Shown here: positions 11,988 through 21,151 of the stretch, piece after piece | Layout of the letters: the number at the start of each line of letters is the position of its first letter | Numbering within the stretch: the first letter of the stretch is position 1 | Origin: a virus | Lineage: Duplodnaviria; Caudoviricetes | Strand: one strand, 5' to 3' | DNA: 45,478 nt | Virus record (IMG/VR): IMGVR_UViG_3300021082_000050 | Location: 1 to 45,478 of that record | Made by a program: the position numbers and the translations under genes | Notes under the pieces: generated by a model | The model's database searches: none | Told to the model about the DNA's origin: nothing | The model's input: only the letters and a program-made list of their open reading frames with translations

Positions 11988-13898
11988 ATGTTCCCCTTGA
12001 TGGCGCTGGGCGCCGGCCTTGGCCAGTTCGCGCAGGACTTCCGGCAGCAGCAGGCGCAGCAGGAGCGCTCCCTGATGTTGCAGATGCAGCTTGCCGAGTA
12101 CCAGCGCGCCCTCGACAAGGACAAGCGGGAGTCGGAGGCGTCCGGTCTCGCCCTCAATTTCGGCCTGCCGGGGGCCGGCGGCGCCCCTGGCGGCTCTTCG
12201 TTTGGGTTGCCGCCGTCGCCGTCCAGCTTCGGCGGCTCTCCCGCTACTGCCGGGGGTGGCGGCGGCATGACCCTTGCCGAGGTCAAGGCAGCGGCGCGTC
12301 GCGCCGGCTTTGACGAGGATGGCGCCAACACCATGGCTGCCATCTCCGTGCCGGAGAGCAGCCTCAACCCCAATGCCTACAACCCGAATGACCCGTCCGG
12401 CGGCTCGTTTGGCCTGACGCAGATCAACGGCGTGCATCCCGGCGCGCGTGAGGCGTTGGGCAATCCCGACAGGGCGATGGAGTTGGCCTTTCGGGTGAGT
12501 AAGGGCGGCACGAATTTCAGCCCGTGGACGGCCTACAGAAGCGGCGCCTATAAGCCGTATCTGGCCGAAGCGTCGCGGATTCTGCCGGCCGGACCCTCCG
12601 CCGCGCCCGCCTCGTTCGATCGCGGCCGGGCCGTCATGGACCCAAGCATGCCGAATACGGCCGAGGGCCGGGCCGCCGCGGCGCCGATGTCGGAAGCGTC
12701 AGCGGGCTATGCCGAGGCGATCGGGCGGGGCTTTAGGGGCACGATCCAGGACTTTGCCGGACGGGGCGGCGGCCCGCAAACCGCGGGGCCGGCGGTCGGG
12801 CAGCAAATGGCGCAGGCGCAAGTGCAGGGCGCGCCGGTGCCGCCGCCCTCGCTGCGGGACATCGCCCTGCTGCTGCGCAGTAAAAACCCCACCACGGACA
12901 GCCGCGTGATCTGGGATGCGGCAGATAGATTCCATAAGCGCGAGCAGGAAAACTACAAGCTCAATTTCGAGCGCTGGAAGGCGTCAACCGGCTTTGCCGG
13001 AGACGCCGCAACCCGCGCCGAGACGAGCCGCCACCATCAGGTATCGGAGGGTTTCGAAGGGCAGAAGATCAGCCTGGAGGAGCAGGGCCTCAAAGAGAAG
13101 ATCGCGGCCGGCACGGCGACCCGCGCCGACCAACTCCGCAACCGCGAGTTGGAGGAGCGCCGGATCGTCGAGACCGAGCGGGCGAACCGGGAGAAAGAGA
13201 GGGGAGACGCCGCGACCCGCACCGAGGCGGGCCGCCACCATCAGGTCACAGAGGGCTTCGAGGGGCAGAAGATCGGCTTGGAGGAGCAGGGCCTCAAGGA
13301 GAAGATCGCGGCCGGGACCGCGACCCGCGCCGACGCGCTGCGCAATCGCGAACTGGAGGAGCGCCGGATCGCCGAGACCGAGCGGGCGAACCGGGCGAGA
13401 GAGAAGGGCGTCGCGGCCAACACCCAGGCCCGCATCGGCAAGGAAACGTCGAAGGTCGATTTGGCGACGACCGAACTCGAAACGCTGGCGAACGAAGCCG
13501 ATCAGTTGTCGCAGATGGTCGAGGCGAACCCCAAGCTGGTCGGCGCCAAGGGCATCGTCGGACGCGCGGTCGGCAGCGTCGGCGAGCAGCTGGGTATTCT
13601 GGATGAAGACCCGGCGCTGGCACAATTCAAGAGCAAGGTGCAACTGCTGCAATCCCGGCTTGCCAAGCCCCTGCTCGGCGCGCGCTACTTCAGCAAGCCG
13701 TCGCAGGACCGCCTGAACCAGCTTCTCCCCGGCCTCCAGCGCCTCGACAACCCGACAGCCGTGGTGCAGTCGCTGAAGAATGTTTCCGAGGTATTGAAGA
13801 CCAATGCAGCCGCCATGAAGGCGGCCTCCGGCGCGGTTTCCGAGGACATCTCGAAACTGACTGACGACGAGATCAAAAAGCAACTCGGGCTGGAATAG
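11988..13898 (+). CDS. Ejection protein with lytic transglycosylase/lysozyme-like domain
   Basis: 'MAAISVPESSLNPNAYN...SFGLTQIN...FSPWTAY' has the catalytic ES and GLxQ motifs. Coiled-coil remainder. Confidence 0.75.
   Translation: MFPLMALGAGLGQFAQDFRQQQAQQERSLMLQMQLAEYQRALDKDKRESEASGLALNFGLPGAGGAPGGSSFGLPPSPSSFGGSPATAGGGGGMTLAEVKAAARRAGFDEDGANTMAAISVPESSLNPNAYNPNDPSGGSFGLTQINGVHPGAREALGNPDRAMELAFRVSKGGTNFSPWTAYRSGAYKPYLAEASRILPAGPSAAPASFDRGRAVMDPSMPNTAEGRAAAAPMSEASAGYAEAIGRGFRGTIQDFAGRGGGPQTAGPAVGQQMAQAQVQGAPVPPPSLRDIALLLRSKNPTTDSRVIWDAADRFHKREQENYKLNFERWKASTGFAGDAATRAETSRHHQVSEGFEGQKISLEEQGLKEKIAAGTATRADQLRNRELEERRIVETERANREKERGDAATRTEAGRHHQVTEGFEGQKIGLEEQGLKEKIAAGTATRADALRNRELEERRIAETERANRAREKGVAANTQARIGKETSKVDLATTELETLANEADQLSQMVEANPKLVGAKGIVGRAVGSVGEQLGILDEDPALAQFKSKVQLLQSRLAKPLLGARYFSKPSQDRLNQLLPGLQRLDNPTAVVQSLKNVSEVLKTNAAAMKAASGAVSEDISKLTDDEIKKQLGLE
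12999..13405 (+). repeat. Two tandem 204-nt (68-aa) in-frame repeats
   Basis: GGAGACGCCGC...CGCCACCATCAGG begins at both 12999 and 13203. Near-identical peptides. Confidence 0.9.
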
Positions 13899-16814
13899 AT
13901 GTCCGACCTCCCCGCAAGCCCCGACACTCAGGGGCGGCTAGAGCTGCTTGGCGAGGCCTATAAGCGCGGGCTGCTGCCGCCGGATCGGGCGCGGCTATAC
14001 GAGGAGGGACAAAAACGAGGCCTGTTCAAAGCCCCCGCGGCCGCGGTGCCCCCGAGCGGCGAGTTGGTTCCCGGCGGCGCGCTGGCCAATCCCAACGCGC
14101 CAGCGCCGGACACCGAGATCGGCATCGGCCTGGCGACCCCGGGCCGAGCGCCCAGCGTGCCCCGGCAGCAGCGTGGCATAATCGACCTGGCGGGCGAGCG
14201 GGCGAGCGGTATCAGGGGCGAGATGCGGCTCCTCCAGGGCTATGACCCGGAGGTAGATTACGACACCGGCACCGGCTGGAACGATGCGGTGGCGATGCAC
14301 CGCTCCGACAACCCGGCCGAGAAGCGGTCCTATCTTGCCCGCAAGTATGGCCCTGAGAATGTCTTTACCGATCGCGGCGGCCGGTTCGTGGTGCGCGGGC
14401 AGGACGGCAAGATGCTGTCGCCGGAAGGCACCGGGTTCATGAACAACCTGATGCAGGGGAGCGCCGGGATCTATGCCGATGCGCCGATGATCGCGGGGGC
14501 AACCGGCGGCGCCATGGTCGGCGCCCCCGCTGGGCCGCTGGGTGCTATTGCCGGGGCGACGGCCGGCTCCGCTCTCGGCAAGACCGCGATCGAGGGCAGC
14601 AAGGCGCTGAGCGGCGATTTTCAGAAGACGATCCCGGAGACGGCGCTGTCGATCGGCATGGGTGGGCTGATGGGCGGCGCCGGGGAGGGGGCGGGCCGGC
14701 TCATCACCGGCATCCCCGGCGCGCTTGGCGGAGCCTTTCGCAAGTATGTGACCGGGACGACGCCGGAAGCGATGGACCTGGCCGCCTCGGTTCAGCGGGC
14801 CGGTGGCGTTGCTCCATTGCGCTCGGTGGCGCCGGGCCTCTCCTCGCCCATCCAGAAACAGGACGTGGCAGCCCGCCTCGGCGCCGACTTCCTGGAAAAC
14901 CCAAACCGGGCGGCTGTCCAAGGTCGGCTGGGCGAGATTGTTGGGGCGGAATTTCCGGCGGCCGAGCGGCCGGGGGCCATGCGCGAGATCATGGACCCAA
15001 CGGCGCGGGTGTCCTCGCGCGAGGCGGGGACCGCGGTGCAGCGCGAGGTGCAGCTGCATGGCGCGCAGCTGGACGCCGAGGTCGATAACCTGGCGCGCGA
15101 CGCCGACCGGATGCTGACGCAGCAGCTGCGGGGCCTGGGCGCCATCCCGCGCCGGGCCCCGGCGGGCGACCTCGGCAGCGATGTGGCGGCCGGGATCGCG
15201 GAGGCGCGCAACGACTTTAGCCGCTCGATGCAGAGCATCTACTCGCGCGTCGATCAGGCGACGGGCGGTGCGGAGATCGTCCCCACGGGGGCGATCAAGC
15301 GGGAGGCGCGGCGCATCCTCGATGCCCTGCCGAAAGATGCACAGGGCAACCCGATATTCGGCGATCAGCGAGTTCTGAGGTCCCTCGGGCAGCTACGCGA
15401 CATCGGGCCGAAGATGACCCTCAGCGACGCGCAGAGCATTCGCGCCACCCTTGGGGAGATGGGCCAGTTCACCGACCTGACCCCAGGCGTCGCCAAAAAG
15501 CAGTTCGGCGATCTGCGGCAGAGCGTCAACACGGCGATCGGGATGGCGGCCCGCGACCCGGCGGCGGCCCCGGCAGTAAACATGCTGCGCCGCGCCGACC
15601 AACTCTACGGCGAGGGCATCCGTAAATTCGAGGATACGACGGTCAACCAGATCGTCAATCAGGCCCGCACCGGCATGATGCCGGACCCAGGGGCCATCGC
15701 CGACAAGGTGCTGCAACCGAAATTTACGGCCCGCGCCCGCGAGATCAGGGGCATGGTCGGGCCGGACGTGTGGCGTCGGGTGGCCTCCGCCGACTGGGAG
15801 AATGTCGTAGCCGCCGCCCGAGACCCGCAGACCGGCGAGATGTCGGCCCGCAAGCTGGCGACGCTGGTGCAGCAGAAGGACCGCGACGGCCTCCTGGAGC
15901 TGACCTATGGGCCGCGGTTGGCCGGGGAGATGCGGCTCTACAGCCGTCGCCTCGACGCGCGCGGCGGGAAAGTCCCGGCGGGGCAACTGACCCCGGACAA
16001 TTTCGCCCAAACCATGCAGCGGCTGGAGACGGCAAACCTGACCCGCGACAGCTTCCTGTCGAAGAATTACCTCTCGGAACTGTCGAAGCCCGGAGCGTCG
16101 GCCGACGATGCGATCGGCTATGTCCTGCGGCCCGGCCAGGAGACGCGCCTGATCGAGGCGCAGCGCTTCTTTGGCGACCAGTCGCCGCAGATGGCTGCGA
16201 TCCGGCAGCAGGCCCTGAAAGAGCTGCTGAACTCGTCGATCGCCCGCACCGAGACGGGCGCGGGAACGATGGTGGTTGGCGACGGCATAGATCAGGCTTT
16301 GCGGCGGTGGACCCCGCGGCAGCAGGAAATCATGTTCCCCGGCGGCCTGGCTGATGACATGCGGCGGCTGGCACAGGAAATTCGCTTCATGTTCCCACGT
16401 CGCGGCGACCAGCTGGGGGGCGCCCTGATTGCCGGCGCGGTCAAGAACCTCCCGTTGCCGGCCCGCATCCCGGCCCTGGCCTACTATCAGGGCATGGGCT
16501 GGATTTTTTCCCAGCCCCGCGTCGTGAAGGCGATCGTCGCCGGGCTGGAGCCGGGGCCGGCAAAGGCGGCGACCCGCGAGACGATCCGCATGATCTTCCG
16601 CGAGGCGGCGATCGGAGAGCTTCCGCACCCGGACGAGACGCCGGAGCCAGGGGTCATGTCTCCGAGTCAGGCGGCCGTCACGATGATGGGCCGCAACTAT
16701 GGTGTCGGCGCCGGGCCGAGGGCGCCCATCCCGCGCGGACTACGGGGCGCTCCGCAGGCGCCTCCCGCTAATGCCGAGCCTCGCGACCTCAGGCCGAGCA
16801 TCGGCGGCCCGTAG
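13899..16814 (+). CDS. Large ejection (DNA transfer) protein
   Basis: 971 aa, helical and Ala-rich, with a Gly/Ala hydrophobic hairpin. 'LLGEAYKRGLLP' start resembles P22 gp16-like proteins. Confidence 0.65.
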   Translation: MSDLPASPDTQGRLELLGEAYKRGLLPPDRARLYEEGQKRGLFKAPAAAVPPSGELVPGGALANPNAPAPDTEIGIGLATPGRAPSVPRQQRGIIDLAGERASGIRGEMRLLQGYDPEVDYDTGTGWNDAVAMHRSDNPAEKRSYLARKYGPENVFTDRGGRFVVRGQDGKMLSPEGTGFMNNLMQGSAGIYADAPMIAGATGGAMVGAPAGPLGAIAGATAGSALGKTAIEGSKALSGDFQKTIPETALSIGMGGLMGGAGEGAGRLITGIPGALGGAFRKYVTGTTPEAMDLAASVQRAGGVAPLRSVAPGLSSPIQKQDVAARLGADFLENPNRAAVQGRLGEIVGAEFPAAERPGAMREIMDPTARVSSREAGTAVQREVQLHGAQLDAEVDNLARDADRMLTQQLRGLGAIPRRAPAGDLGSDVAAGIAEARNDFSRSMQSIYSRVDQATGGAEIVPTGAIKREARRILDALPKDAQGNPIFGDQRVLRSLGQLRDIGPKMTLSDAQSIRATLGEMGQFTDLTPGVAKKQFGDLRQSVNTAIGMAARDPAAAPAVNMLRRADQLYGEGIRKFEDTTVNQIVNQARTGMMPDPGAIADKVLQPKFTARAREIRGMVGPDVWRRVASADWENVVAAARDPQTGEMSARKLATLVQQKDRDGLLELTYGPRLAGEMRLYSRRLDARGGKVPAGQLTPDNFAQTMQRLETANLTRDSFLSKNYLSELSKPGASADDAIGYVLRPGQETRLIEAQRFFGDQSPQMAAIRQQALKELLNSSIARTETGAGTMVVGDGIDQALRRWTPRQQEIMFPGGLADDMRRLAQEIRFMFPRRGDQLGGALIAGAVKNLPLPARIPALAYYQGMGWIFSQPRVVKAIVAGLEPGPAKAATRETIRMIFREAAIGELPHPDETPEPGVMSPSQAAVTMMGRNYGVGAGPRAPIPRGLRGAPQAPPANAEPRDLRPSIGGP

Positions 16815-19087
16815 TGGCTCGCGTTCTGATTGTCGAGCCCACCGCGGACGGTCTGCTCGATCTCGCGATCCGCGCCCAGCAGCACGGTCATTCCGTCCAC
16901 TACTGGCTCAAATCATACGACCAGCACAAGCAGCCGGTCGGCCGGGGCCTCGTCGAGCGGGTCGCAGACTGGCGCTCACTCGCCCGCCGAGTCGATCTGG
17001 TGATCCTCGGGAGCCTGGGTTACTGCGGCCGGGAGTTCGACCAATTGCGGGCCGAGGGGGTGCCGGTCATCGGGGCGCCGGGCCTCGTCGGCGAATGGGA
17101 GCTGGACCGCCTCGTCGGCATGCAGCAGTTCAAGCGTGCCGGTATCCCGGTCCCACCGTACCGCCAATGCACCAATTACGACGAAGCGATCAGCCTCGTC
17201 TCGCAGCGCGACGACGGGGTAGCGATCAAGCCATGCGGGGACGTGACCGACAAGAGCCTCAGCTTCGTCGCCAAGACCCCGCGCGAGGCGGTCTGGCGGT
17301 TGCAGCGGTGGAAGCGGGAGGGCAGGCGGTTTCCCCATGGGTTCATCCTCCAGGAGCTGGTCGAGGGCGTAGAGTTCGCGGTCGGCGGCTGGATCGGCCC
17401 CGGCGGGTTCGCCGAGGGGTGGGAAGAAAATTTCGAGGAGAAACGCCTCTTTGCCGGTGGCGTCGGTCCCAATTGCTACTCGGCCGATACGGAGGTCCTT
17501 ACAGCCGTGGGCTGGAAAGCGTGGCCGGATGTCAAAAAAGCCGACTGTCTCGCTACGCTCAATGACGGGCTCGTCTGTTACGTGATGCCAGACCGGCTGG
17601 TCGAGAGCGACTTCGATGGCGAGATGATCGGCTGGCGGTCTAACCGCGTCGATCTGCTCGTCACCCCGGATCACGCGATGTACGTCGCCGACCGCGATAC
17701 GGTCCGTCGCGGTGAGCCCGAGTTCTACCGGGCCGCAGCCGATGGCCTCGCCGAGAACCGGATAGAGAAGAAATTCGCCGTGCTGCGGGTCGGGCGTTGG
17801 GCCGCCCCCGGTAATCCCTCGATCACCCCGGCCCGCGCCCGCCTTCTGGGTATGTTTCTGGCGGACGGTCATTGCGGGCAGCGGTCAATCGTGTTCGGCA
17901 ATTGCCCGGCCCACAAAGAGGCTCTGATTCGCGATGCGGCACTGGCGTGCGGCTACGTTGCGCACCGCTATGGCGCGGATGTCTACATCAACAGCCGCGA
18001 CCTGGCTAATGCCTGGCGGCACTTCCCCAAAGCCGTCGAGAAGCGGGCGCCGCAAGAAATCATGGGCGCGGCGCCCGACGTAATTGCTGCGTTCCTCGAT
18101 GGGCTTGCCCTCGACGCGGCGACAATGGGCAATCGGGTCTACACCACGGCCAGCCGGGGCATGGCCGATGATATCCAGATCATGCTGATGCGCATCGGCC
18201 TCGCCGGGCATGTCCACGAGCGCGACCGCCGCGGCGAGCCCGAGCGGGAGCTGGGCGGCTACATCATCCGGGGCGGCCTGTCTTGGGATGTCGGGGTATC
18301 CTCTCAGGCTCTCGCGTGGCTCCGGCCGAGGTATTGCTATCGCGCGCCCTACCGCGGGAAGGTCTATTGCGCGACCGTCAACTCGGAGTCGCATGCCCTG
18401 TTTGTTCGCAGGAACGGGAAGGCGTGCTGGTCCGGCAATTGCGGCGAGGCCGGCACCGTGATGCGGCTGGTAGCGCGCAGCAAGCTGGCTGACCGCGTCC
18501 TGAAGCCCCTCGAAGATCGCCTTGTGAGCCTCGGCTACGTTGGCAACATCGACGTGAATTGTATTGTTGACGAGGACGGCAGCCCGTGGCCCCTGGAGTT
18601 CACAGCTCGCTTTGGGTATCCCGCAATCAACATAGAGCTTGCACTTCATGGCGACCCTATCGAGTTTCTGGCCGGGCTTGCGGCCGGGAAGCCGCCCAAG
18701 ACGCGGCGGCTGGACGAGGTGGCGGTCGGCGTCGTCTGCGCCCTGCCGCCATACCCGTACCGGGAGAAGCCGGACGAGACGGTCGGGGTGCCGATCTGGG
18801 GTGTGACGCCCGGCATCGAGGACAACATCCACCTCTGCATGGCCCAGGTCGGCGAGTTCGAGAAGCGCCCCACGCTGATGACCGCCGGCAGCTACGTCCT
18901 AGTATCGACCGGGACCGGCGAGAGTGTCGTTGCGGCCCGCAACGAGGCGTACCGCGTGCTCGATCGCCTGACCATCCCGGCCTCGCCCTTCTGGCGGAAT
19001 GACATAGGGAGCCGTCTTTCGAGAGACGTCCCGCGACTGCAGGAGCATGGCTATGCCGCGGGGTTAAGGTACAGCGCAGCCGCATGA
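16814..19087 (+). CDS. PurD (GAR synthetase)-like ATP-grasp ligase containing an intein
   Basis: 'ELDRLVG', 'AIKP', 'ILQELVEGVEF', 'EEKRLFAGGVGPN/CGEAG', 'YVGNIDVN', 'PLEFTARFGYP' and 'WRNDIG' match the PurD ATP-grasp layout. Confidence 0.85.
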   Translation: MARVLIVEPTADGLLDLAIRAQQHGHSVHYWLKSYDQHKQPVGRGLVERVADWRSLARRVDLVILGSLGYCGREFDQLRAEGVPVIGAPGLVGEWELDRLVGMQQFKRAGIPVPPYRQCTNYDEAISLVSQRDDGVAIKPCGDVTDKSLSFVAKTPREAVWRLQRWKREGRRFPHGFILQELVEGVEFAVGGWIGPGGFAEGWEENFEEKRLFAGGVGPNCYSADTEVLTAVGWKAWPDVKKADCLATLNDGLVCYVMPDRLVESDFDGEMIGWRSNRVDLLVTPDHAMYVADRDTVRRGEPEFYRAAADGLAENRIEKKFAVLRVGRWAAPGNPSITPARARLLGMFLADGHCGQRSIVFGNCPAHKEALIRDAALACGYVAHRYGADVYINSRDLANAWRHFPKAVEKRAPQEIMGAAPDVIAAFLDGLALDAATMGNRVYTTASRGMADDIQIMLMRIGLAGHVHERDRRGEPERELGGYIIRGGLSWDVGVSSQALAWLRPRYCYRAPYRGKVYCATVNSESHALFVRRNGKACWSGNCGEAGTVMRLVARSKLADRVLKPLEDRLVSLGYVGNIDVNCIVDEDGSPWPLEFTARFGYPAINIELALHGDPIEFLAGLAAGKPPKTRRLDEVAVGVVCALPPYPYREKPDETVGVPIWGVTPGIEDNIHLCMAQVGEFEKRPTLMTAGSYVLVSTGTGESVVAARNEAYRVLDRLTIPASPFWRNDIGSRLSRDVPRLQEHGYAAGLRYSAAA
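17474..18439 (+). mobile_element. Intein (322 aa) with LAGLIDADG-type homing endonuclease domain
   Basis: N-terminal 'CYSADTEVLT', block B 'LLVTPDHAMY', 'LLGMFLADG', and C-terminal 'VYCATV...LFVRRNGKACWSGN' followed by +1 Cys. Confidence 0.9.
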
Positions 19088-19105: not shown

Positions 19106-19750
19106 TCAAAATACCCGATGCCGCTCGCCTTGGGCGCGGGCGGCGGCGAATGCGGCGTGCGCCACCTCCGCTTGCCTACGGCAAATTGTGTGGGGAACGT
19201 TGAGTGGATTCTCGTTTTGATTTCGGCAGGCGCAGCTGCCATGTACACGAACGCATTCGTCAGTAGTAATGCGTTCGGCAAAGTCGCGTGCAGCTTCCTG
19301 ATCCTCCCCCGCGCCCGTGGTCCAGCGGAGACGGGTGACATCTTCTCTTGCCCATTCATAGGCGTATTCGTTAGCAAGTTCTCTCAGCCGCGCAACCTCC
19401 GCCTTGGACGCGTCGAGTTCGTTGCAGAGAACACGAAGCCGCCCTTCTATATGACGAACCTCCGCCTGGGATGCGGCGAGGGCGGATTGTGTTTCGCGTA
19501 AGCAATCTTCGATGTGACAGCGATGGTTGCCATATTCGTCGTTCCAGGGTGCGTGGCATTGATTTGCCGCCAGTGCGAAATTCCGTTTCTCGCTCGCGGC
19601 GAGGGCGGATTGTAGAAAGTCACCCCGCGCCTCGCCCGGCTGCGGCGCGTCGGGGACGCAGCGCGGGCATGGGGCGTCCATGCTCGGCAGCACCATCGCG
19701 CAGCTCTGGCAGATCGGCTCCGACTCCTCGATCTCGGCATCGTCAGGCAT
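19106..19750 (-). CDS. Hypothetical protein with CxxC..CxxC zinc ribbon and coiled coil
   Basis: GGGGAG RBS before ATG at 19750. 'CQSC..CPRC' and a repeated 'QSALAAS' segment. Confidence 0.6.
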   Translation of the reverse strand: MPDDAEIEESEPICQSCAMVLPSMDAPCPRCVPDAPQPGEARGDFLQSALAASEKRNFALAANQCHAPWNDEYGNHRCHIEDCLRETQSALAASQAEVRHIEGRLRVLCNELDASKAEVARLRELANEYAYEWAREDVTRLRWTTGAGEDQEAARDFAERITTDECVRVHGSCACRNQNENPLNVPHTICRRQAEVAHAAFAAARAQGERHRVF

Positions 19751-19770
19751 CTTTCTCCCCTCTGTTGATC

Positions 19771-19974
19771 GAGCCACACCGCGCCATAGCCCGCCCCGCC
19801 ATTCCGAACCACGCCATACCCCGCCAAGCCGCGCCATACCGACGCCCGCCTGCCCGCACCTAGCCATTCCACGCCTCGCCGTGGCCAACCAGACCGCGCC
19901 GCACCCAACCGCGCCGGGCCTGTCCACTAGCCACAGCTTCCCAATTCCCCGCCGAGCCGCACCCGACCTACGCC
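19771..19974 (-). repeat. Array of 5-nt GGY-NN units; putative non-coding guide RNA
   Basis: 19925->19771 is 31 in-phase pentamers, 28 starting GG and 24 GGY. Five more units (19968->19944) start at the stop codon of the RAMP gene. Confidence 0.85.
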
Positions 19975-20639
19975 TGGCACACCCGATAAGAAACGACCGA
20001 AAATCGTCCGTATGTCGGCCGAAAATCGCCCAAACCGCCGATCCGGCCAGCCGTCGAGATGACCTCGTTCAGAACCTGCGGGCTGATGTACTCGGGCAGC
20101 GTGACGAGGATCAGGAATGTCGCGCGCCAGCCGACCTTCATGCCCGGCCGCGTTCTGTTGATGCCGCTGCGCTGAACCACGACCCTGCGCTTGTCCTCGA
20201 AGTCCCATACGGTAGCGGCCGCGCCATACCCTGCCTCGCCCCTGCTTACCGCGGAATATAATGGGGCGAGAGGCGTCAAAGACCCCACCCCGGCCTTGAA
20301 CAGGTCCATCGCCGACTTTCGTGGCGAGCGCGGGTCTTGTCGGAACTTGGCTGCGCCGACGATCGCGCCGCGCAGATATTCACCAGGAATACAAATCTCC
20401 CCATCCTCATTGCGATAAACATAACTTTCGAGGTTGTCGCTCTTTTTTGCGGCGCTTCCTTTGGCCGCCTTGGCCTTCTCGTCTACCGCCTCCGGGTTCC
20501 AGCGATGGAACAGGATGTCGGCGGAGCCCTCGATCACGACCTCGACGGTGAAGGGCTCGCTCATCGCGATGATGTCGTTCCCGCCATCATTCGGATCGGC
20601 CAGATGTATTACTTCTGCCATTACTTTTGCTTTAGCCAT
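19968..20639 (-). CDS. Solitary Cas7/Csm3-like RAMP-fold protein
   Basis: N-terminal beta strand 'VEVVIEG', 'ICIPGEYLRGAIVGAA', thumb-like 'RRVVVQRSGINRTRP' and C-terminal Gly-rich loop 'AGRIGGLGDFRPTYGRF'. Confidence 0.8.
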   Translation of the reverse strand: MAKAKVMAEVIHLADPNDGGNDIIAMSEPFTVEVVIEGSADILFHRWNPEAVDEKAKAAKGSAAKKSDNLESYVYRNEDGEICIPGEYLRGAIVGAAKFRQDPRSPRKSAMDLFKAGVGSLTPLAPLYSAVSRGEAGYGAAATVWDFEDKRRVVVQRSGINRTRPGMKVGWRATFLILVTLPEYISPQVLNEVISTAGRIGGLGDFRPTYGRFSVVSYRVCQA

Positions 20640-21151
20640 TAATCCTTCTCCTCGGTCTTTTTGGCGAAGTCAACGACCAGCTGGATGCTACTGCTGTCGC
20701 CCATGTTGGCCCGGGAGTTCCAGGCTCTCTGATTTATCAGGGTAAGCCATCCAATTTGGGGGCTGACGGCCTCTATGCCGGAATGGATCACCACCCCGGG
20801 ATTGGTCCGCAACGAGACGATCATTCGCTGAAACCGCACGCTGTATGGCGTGGCATTGCGCTCCCATGGGAGGCAGGTATCCGGCGGGATGATCTCCAGG
20901 CCGATCTTGCCGAAATCGATCCCACCGGTCGCGTCCCCAAGCCGCTTGATGCGCCCAAGGTAGGACCTGAGCTCGACCCACTTGCTGGTGTCGAAAAGCT
21001 GCCGGTACGCCGTATCGTCGTCCGGGTCATCGGCCCCGGCGCGCGGTCCCCGGATCGGCAGCAGGCCCTCCTTGAACAAGCCCATGCGTTTCGGCAGCGA
21101 GGCCGCCAGCTCGTGCGGGTCCAGGAATGCCAGGGCGAGGATGTTCGGCAC
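20639..21151 (-). CDS. Aspartyl/asparaginyl beta-hydroxylase-like cupin, metal ligands apparently lost
   Basis: GTG start. 'IIPPDTCLPWER..PYS..FQRMIVSLRTNPG...NSRANMG...IQLVVDF' follows the AspH double-stranded beta-helix pattern without HxD/H. Confidence 0.55.
   Translation of the reverse strand: MPNILALAFLDPHELAASLPKRMGLFKEGLLPIRGPRAGADDPDDDTAYRQLFDTSKWVELRSYLGRIKRLGDATGGIDFGKIGLEIIPPDTCLPWERNATPYSVRFQRMIVSLRTNPGVVIHSGIEAVSPQIGWLTLINQRAWNSRANMGDSSSIQLVVDFAKKTEEKD

Follow-up and report, generated by a model that had tools for sequence, protein, structure and literature searches.

The locus described here is best explained as a phage VIPR cassette, comprising a gene for a Vipr RAMP protein and an adjoining array of GGY/NN pentamers, of which units 12-21 are likely to aim at a host CBASS cyclase gene; we put the probability of this reading at roughly 0.6. 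The membership of the locus in VIPR is itself close to certain. Its fold, homology, array and their co-occurrence are established, as is, for its relatives, a code in which one nucleotide is skipped. VIPR, made up of Vipr and vrRNA, is a published system (10.64898/2026.04.26.720920), and the system in the window is therefore not categorically new; the first-pass annotation had mentioned a report of a phage RAMP with GGY/NN units, and that report exists. The window, as we use the term, is the whole 45,478-bp phage record that was analysed (66% GC). The features that concern us are the following.

20639-21151, minus strand: operon neighbour upstream of vipr, a 170-aa Asp/Asn beta-hydroxylase-like gene, not a vap (ESM Atlas 0.97, PF05118).
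19968-20639, minus strand: vipr gene, encoding a 223-aa RAMP protein with a single RRM, thumb and G-loop (fold and homology).
20216-20250, minus strand: in-frame run of 7 GGY/NN units within vipr that encodes a loop insertion and is likely the remnant of a 13-unit vipr-targeting guide (sister comparison).
19944-19983, minus strand: 8-unit GGY/NN block over the last vipr codons and the stop (unit scan).
19926-19943, minus strand: segment of 18 nt in which the phase shifts, with three degenerate pentamers between 1 nt and 2 nt (sequence).
19771-19925, minus strand: 31-unit GGY/NN vrRNA array with no structured 3' tail (unit counts and folding).
19821-19870, minus strand: array units 12-21, a candidate guide directed at a nucleotidyltransferase gene, likely that of a CBASS cyclase, at its QGS active-site codons (decoding and cyclase scoring).
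19106-19760, minus strand: ribosome-binding site (GGGGAG) and 214-aa ORF, 20 nt past the array, for which linkage to vipr is absent elsewhere (sequence and locus comparison).

The 223-aa minus-strand ORF (20639-19968) contains the motifs IPGEYLRGAI and GGLGDFRPTYGRF, from which a Cas7-like RAMP had been proposed, and its predicted fold bears this out, with one RRM core, a thumb and a G-loop. A family profile of the protein matches SUSP1 Vipr with an E-value of 1.9e-17, the two proteins being ~25% identical. In the alignment SUSP1 residues H17, K33, E71, R138, D177 and R179 correspond to H45, K55, E87, R164, D205 and R207 of the window protein, and W178 to F206, so that the residues contacting GGY or the target are kept at these positions; M72, C173 and V175 are replaced by Y88, G201 and L203. 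Residue 175 of SUSP1 Vipr (L014) is T175 in the structure preprint and V in the GenBank translation. No model in Pfam, NCBIfam or PADLOC covers the window protein, which matches PHROG 4652, a family of unknown function.

The array itself consists of 31 in-phase pentamers running from 19925 to 19771, exactly as first listed, of which 28 begin with GG and 24 with GGY; all 31 have G at position 1, seven depart from GGY, and positions 4-5 are mixed. Elsewhere in the window the best in-phase count over 31 units is 13 GG, and 100 order-3 Markov simulations reach no more than 14. We rejected a codon-repeat origin, given a period of 5 and an array that lies mostly between genes. The five pentamers and 18-nt linker placed ahead of the array in the first-pass annotation were correctly positioned, but the block has eight units (19983-19944, rather than five at 19968-19944), reaching three units back into the end of the ORF, and the linker is made of phase-shifted degenerate pentamers: 1 nt, then GGGAA GCTGT GGCTA, then 2 nt. 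An independent contig of run X6, spanning 19824-20092, differs at only two places, both within 19926-19943, and leaves array units 1-20 unchanged. The 3' end of the array, 10 nt before the ribosome-binding site, has no stable fold (folding z 0.94), and searches at the array for a hammerhead, tail hairpin, sigma-70 promoter or terminator found none. An Rfam scan of the window and five loci gave nothing at gathering level. A second block of NN pairs (GC TG GC GC CT; 19911-19886, units 3-8) also occurs in the arrays of the sister phages L002 and L011.

Relatives show the same linkage, as had been anticipated. Counting as linked an array of at least 6 units on the same strand and within 700 bp, a GGY/NN array accompanies vipr at 84 of 86 viral and 76 of 80 metagenome loci, sets that overlap and include copies of the window genome. 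Six loci (L076, L091, L159, L185, L202 and L205) have vipr and no array detected within 700 bp, and possibly represent orphan effectors or non-GGY arrays. Tracts of 20 to more than 100 units are common among the relatives, long degenerate arrays being normal for the clade, and 31 units without a tail are thus unexceptional. At 26 of 166 loci the vipr ribosome-binding site, or the array upstream of vipr, is closely preceded by a conserved structured RNA of ~75 nt whose stems covary (for example L002, 2919-2994); against Rfam it gave sub-threshold matches only, the best being c-di-GMP-II-GAG (E 0.17). No structured RNA is found upstream of vipr in the window. Among the close sisters, the seven whose upstream sequence is in view all have both the upstream array and the structured element, and both are missing in the window.

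The wider setting is that of a tailed phage, judging from the terminase, major head, helicase, ERF and RecE-like genes that the window carries along with RusA; its terminase has distant relatives only. The absence of any other cas gene or CRISPR, claimed at the outset, held for the 33 ORFs scanned, in which a generic helicase match was the sole hit to cas families, and for the largest 20 of 35 repeat families, none of them CRISPR-like. Neither gene flanking vipr and its array recurs beside vipr at the 164 other loci, where the neighbours differ by sub-clade, implying that there is no vap at the window locus. The hydroxylase-like gene was rejected as a vap since a homologue occurs at only one of these 164 loci, ~2.4 kb from vipr. 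Its product (20639-21151, minus strand) seems by eye to lack the usual iron-binding histidines and may be inactive. Farther along, a 757-aa ORF (16814-19087, plus strand) has by eye the look of an ATP-grasp protein (GAR-synthetase-like) split by an intein with a homing endonuclease, and its PHROG match spans residues 220-381; a 204-nt tandem duplication, 88% identical, lies at 12999-13406 (plus strand) within a 636-aa ORF.

According to the published work the VIPR target is dsDNA, read with a gap of 1 nt (10.64898/2026.04.26.720920). The first-pass annotation had proposed a non-contiguous NN guide acting on DNA or RNA, with the gap left open; the DNA alternative stands, with computed support for the 1-nt gap in this clade, and the RNA alternative does not. 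We compared 311 distinct arrays of at least 10 units with 166 vipr genes, leaving out three low-complexity L140 runs. With a skip of 1, six of the 311 arrays matched at 19-20/20 and nine at 18 or more; matches of 19-20/20 numbered zero under skips 0, 2 and 3 and in three shuffles, the peaks being 17 for skips 0 and 3, 18 for skip 2 and at most 18 for the shuffles. All nine matches of 18 or more are in codon register and fall on Vipr motifs, and the arrays that support the code belong to relatives at 56-83% identity. A 1-nt-skip code with the skip at the wobble base is thus supported in the relatives within this clade.

These vipr-directed guides (L005, 2993-3042; L114, 3636-3710; L128, 3119 onward; L162, 1890-1959; L082, 2652-2721) aim at four Vipr motifs: the G-loop, the thumb, FHRWN and the helical bundle. 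Matches to self tend to be lower, the L005 guide scoring 16/20 on its own gene and at least 18 on 70 of 83 genes; the L005 vipr is recoded at the guide site. The window vipr gene is matched at 19/20 by the guides of L005 and L114. The arrays of the window match the 164 other vipr loci at best at 16/20 under every skip, and its best 10-unit self-match stays at 15-16/20 whichever of the four skips is used, which argues that there is no self target in the window.

What, then, might the window array recognise? In the sense frame units 12-21 decode to I/M-Y-A-Q/H-G-S-I/M-A-L/F-G, the active-site motif of CBASS cyclases, and the earlier suggestion that targets are competing phages or host genes gains some support, for host genes and for these units only. 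The block is common to L003, L011 and L151. L175, on a different scaffold, has 15/16 of the same NN pairs, and its guide appears to have converged independently on the cyclase motif; the position at which the guides differ (A, V, S) is variable in cyclases as well (P, V, A, S, T). The protein-level scores that follow are best cases over synonymous codons. Against 120 cyclases from a SMODS family search independent of the guide, units 12-21 share the top rank among 8,074 windows, at a score of 16, with one unrelated window; the shuffle controls apply to a second set only, 110 relatives of the cyclase L257. On that set a best-case median of at least 16 is attained by 10 of 8,074 guide windows, all from the lineage of the units 12-21 block, L175 and L082, and by none in three shuffles of ~8,700 windows or with reversed proteins. 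The 110-cyclase set is circular for units 13-21 because it was reached via a guide-derived pattern; it is not circular for L082, whose guide fits a second cyclase motif, GMHLDITP, or for the L011 guide, which, past the end of the search pattern, still agrees with the A-T-I consensus at 5/6. The array concerned in L082/L083 (3685-3754 in L082 coordinates) has 14 units and fits GMHLDITP when decoded antisense, with a best-case 12-unit median of 19/24 on the 110 cyclases.

In actual cyclase gene DNA the matches to units 12-21 are 17, 14 and 15 of 20, with no extension through units 22-24. The 17/20 match is to L257, a CBASS cyclase (PADLOC E 8.5e-132) on a viral-collection contig, which came from a looser viral pattern scan with seven matches, one of them a cyclase. 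Of the other wider viral patterns one, a 10-unit union pattern, gave no match and one a single ANT-like match. Viral seed scans with window units 13-20, 2-10 and 23-30 returned 10, 2 and 14 matches, none extending, and we treated these as chance. The GTDB scan gave 51 matches, 49 of them ANT-like HGS transferases, mostly from Bacillota, at 17-19/20; there were no cyclases, and no match extends. A Q-type pattern was absent from 401 genomes in each of two phyla (802 in total), which are probably not those of the host. At a threshold of at least 80% of NN, the candidate natural targets are L257 (17/20) and ANT-like genes (19/20), over 10 units only and without extension, and no direct target for the window's own array was found in the viral, GTDB, self or vipr-locus scans. 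Even so, a cyclase gene is the probable target of units 12-21. The main texts of the VIPR preprints make no mention of CBASS targeting, with figures and data tables that may bear on novelty, and a literature search on VIPR and CBASS gave nothing related.

Outside the arrays, no 7-unit window on either strand except the run inside the vipr ORF (20250-20216), which the first-pass annotation had missed, has six or more GGY units; the 7-unit form is also present in a contig of run X4. The sisters (77-83% identity; L002-L005, L007, L010-L012) have 13 units at this site; the two forms differ by 30 nt, equal to 6 units or 10 codons, so that frame and phase are both kept. Both sister clusters carry the long form, which points to loss from a 13-unit form. 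Decoding of the 13-unit form gives KG[ST]KAKKTD; its match is 18-19/20 on other vipr genes, compared with 14-15/20 on its own. L186/L197 have a separate insertion, of 12 units, that decodes to WDYLDTRRVM and matches another vipr at 20/20 and its own at 17/20, making feedback on self possible. The 7 units of the window, without the six core units, matched no vipr gene (best 11/14), and the run would be a shortened, decayed copy of a guide that the sisters aim at rival vipr genes. A loop insertion is present in 16 of 120 close proteins, absent from 103 and not parsed in one; a quick tree of 118 rows requires 9 changes to account for the 15 carriers, and strong branches force at least 5 of these. 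Loop insertions appear to recur across the Vipr tree, with guide DNA readable in two lineages and a five-residue periodicity presumed in the others. In-ORF guides, too, go without mention in the main texts of the VIPR preprints, where again figures and data tables may bear on novelty.

Comparison with known systems places these features in context. The main texts of the VIPR preprints describe repeats of at least 4 tandem GGY/NN units (YNNGG), and use by phage against phage, by phage against satellite and, after host capture, for defence (10.64898/2026.04.26.720920; 720927; 2026.10.15.759431); a further preprint, as far as its text goes, recovers VIPR arrays. The window shares with VIPR a solitary phage RAMP homologous to SUSP1 Vipr, adjoining GGY/NN repeats, a 1-nt skip at the wobble base and a minimal, mostly viral locus without CRISPR array or cas operon, and SUSP1-family phages likewise have vipr-targeting guides with a lower self-match. 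It is not type II, however. Type II systems (SUSP1, P. fulva) have vrRNAs of 9-16 repeats, each with a structured 3' tail, in contrast to the 31-unit tract of the window with its phase shifts and no tail, and types II-VII have a linked vap, which the window does not. The guide-like run in the vipr frame and the guide decoding to a CBASS cyclase motif also set it apart from published VIPR. With Cas7/Csm3 of class 1 CRISPR (type III-A Csm, III-B Cmr, type VII) it shares the RAMP fold, thumb, G-loop and a predicted filament on guide RNA, but it has neither cas operon nor repeat-spacer array, and its 5-nt unit has a code with gaps where CRISPR guides pair contiguously. The anti-CBASS proteins of phages, Acb1 and Acb2, degrade or sequester the cyclic nucleotide. 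The VIPR of the window would also counter CBASS if units 12-21 silence a cyclase, but by RNA-guided gene silencing.

In the mechanism that we envisage, the array would be transcribed together with the recombination-gene operon. Vipr is predicted to coat the array RNA, with one protomer per repeat as in the published papers, and the NN pairs would read dsDNA, skipping every third base. The target would then be silenced, as those papers describe, by triplex-driven strand exchange that turns transcription off without cleavage. The 31 units probably form two or three tandem guides, not tailed single RNAs.

Could this instead be an ordinary VIPR whose guides are all directed against unsampled phages, prophages or satellites, the cyclase likeness being due to chance or to the cyclase of a rival mobile element? 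All high-identity targets found in the clade are vipr genes, the sole cyclase DNA match, L257, sits on a viral-collection contig, and no real-DNA match of the window to a cyclase exceeds 17/20. Against this, the independent scaffolds of L175 and L082 converge on two catalytic motifs of one enzyme family and shuffled controls do not, and we consider the explanation rather unlikely. A nucleotidyltransferase that is ANT(9)/AadA-like or of another HGS type, instead of a cyclase, is a very improbable target of units 12-21, despite the 49 of 51 GTDB matches, up to 19/20, and a similar gene in L245 that scores with ANT(9) and AadA models. None of these matches extends past the seed, and most come from low-GC Bacillota, improbable hosts for a phage of 66% GC. 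In L011 and L175 the guide tails agree with cyclases and not with the C-F-N continuation.

The window copy, in which tail, vap and upstream structured RNA are all missing, could also be decaying, in which case the array would yield no working guides. The loss of the six core units from the in-ORF run, the absence of the upstream array and structured element common to the viewable close sisters, and the seven non-GGY units are all consistent with decay. The ORF is intact, however, with its RNA-contact residues kept, and the array units covered by the independent contig are unchanged; the structured element, moreover, occurs at a minority of loci, 26 of 166, and long degenerate arrays are usual in the clade. 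We accordingly assign decay a low probability.

We favour, then, the reading of the locus as a VIPR cassette with a likely anti-cyclase guide. A broader proposal, to which we give slightly less than even odds, is that the clade uses VIPR as a programmable anti-defence silencer of host CBASS cyclase genes at their catalytic codons, and repeatedly builds vipr-directed guides into a tolerant loop of vipr, the mRNA doubling as a guide against rivals or as a feedback switch. The architecture is already known as VIPR; the novelty lies in guides within the ORF and in a guide plausibly directed against CBASS, each predicted from sequence. If true, the use of VIPR against host immune genes would be a third direction beside phage/satellite conflict and host defence, and would amount to an RNA-guided anti-CBASS activity from which wobble mutations offer no escape. 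In-frame guides inside vipr would imply that a vrRNA can work within an mRNA and without a tail, and would explain how VIPR systems fight or regulate each other. Since the clade is large, with 7,232 of 8,000 scored candidates at E <= 1e-20, decoding arrays against protein motifs can read off the targets that phages have chosen.
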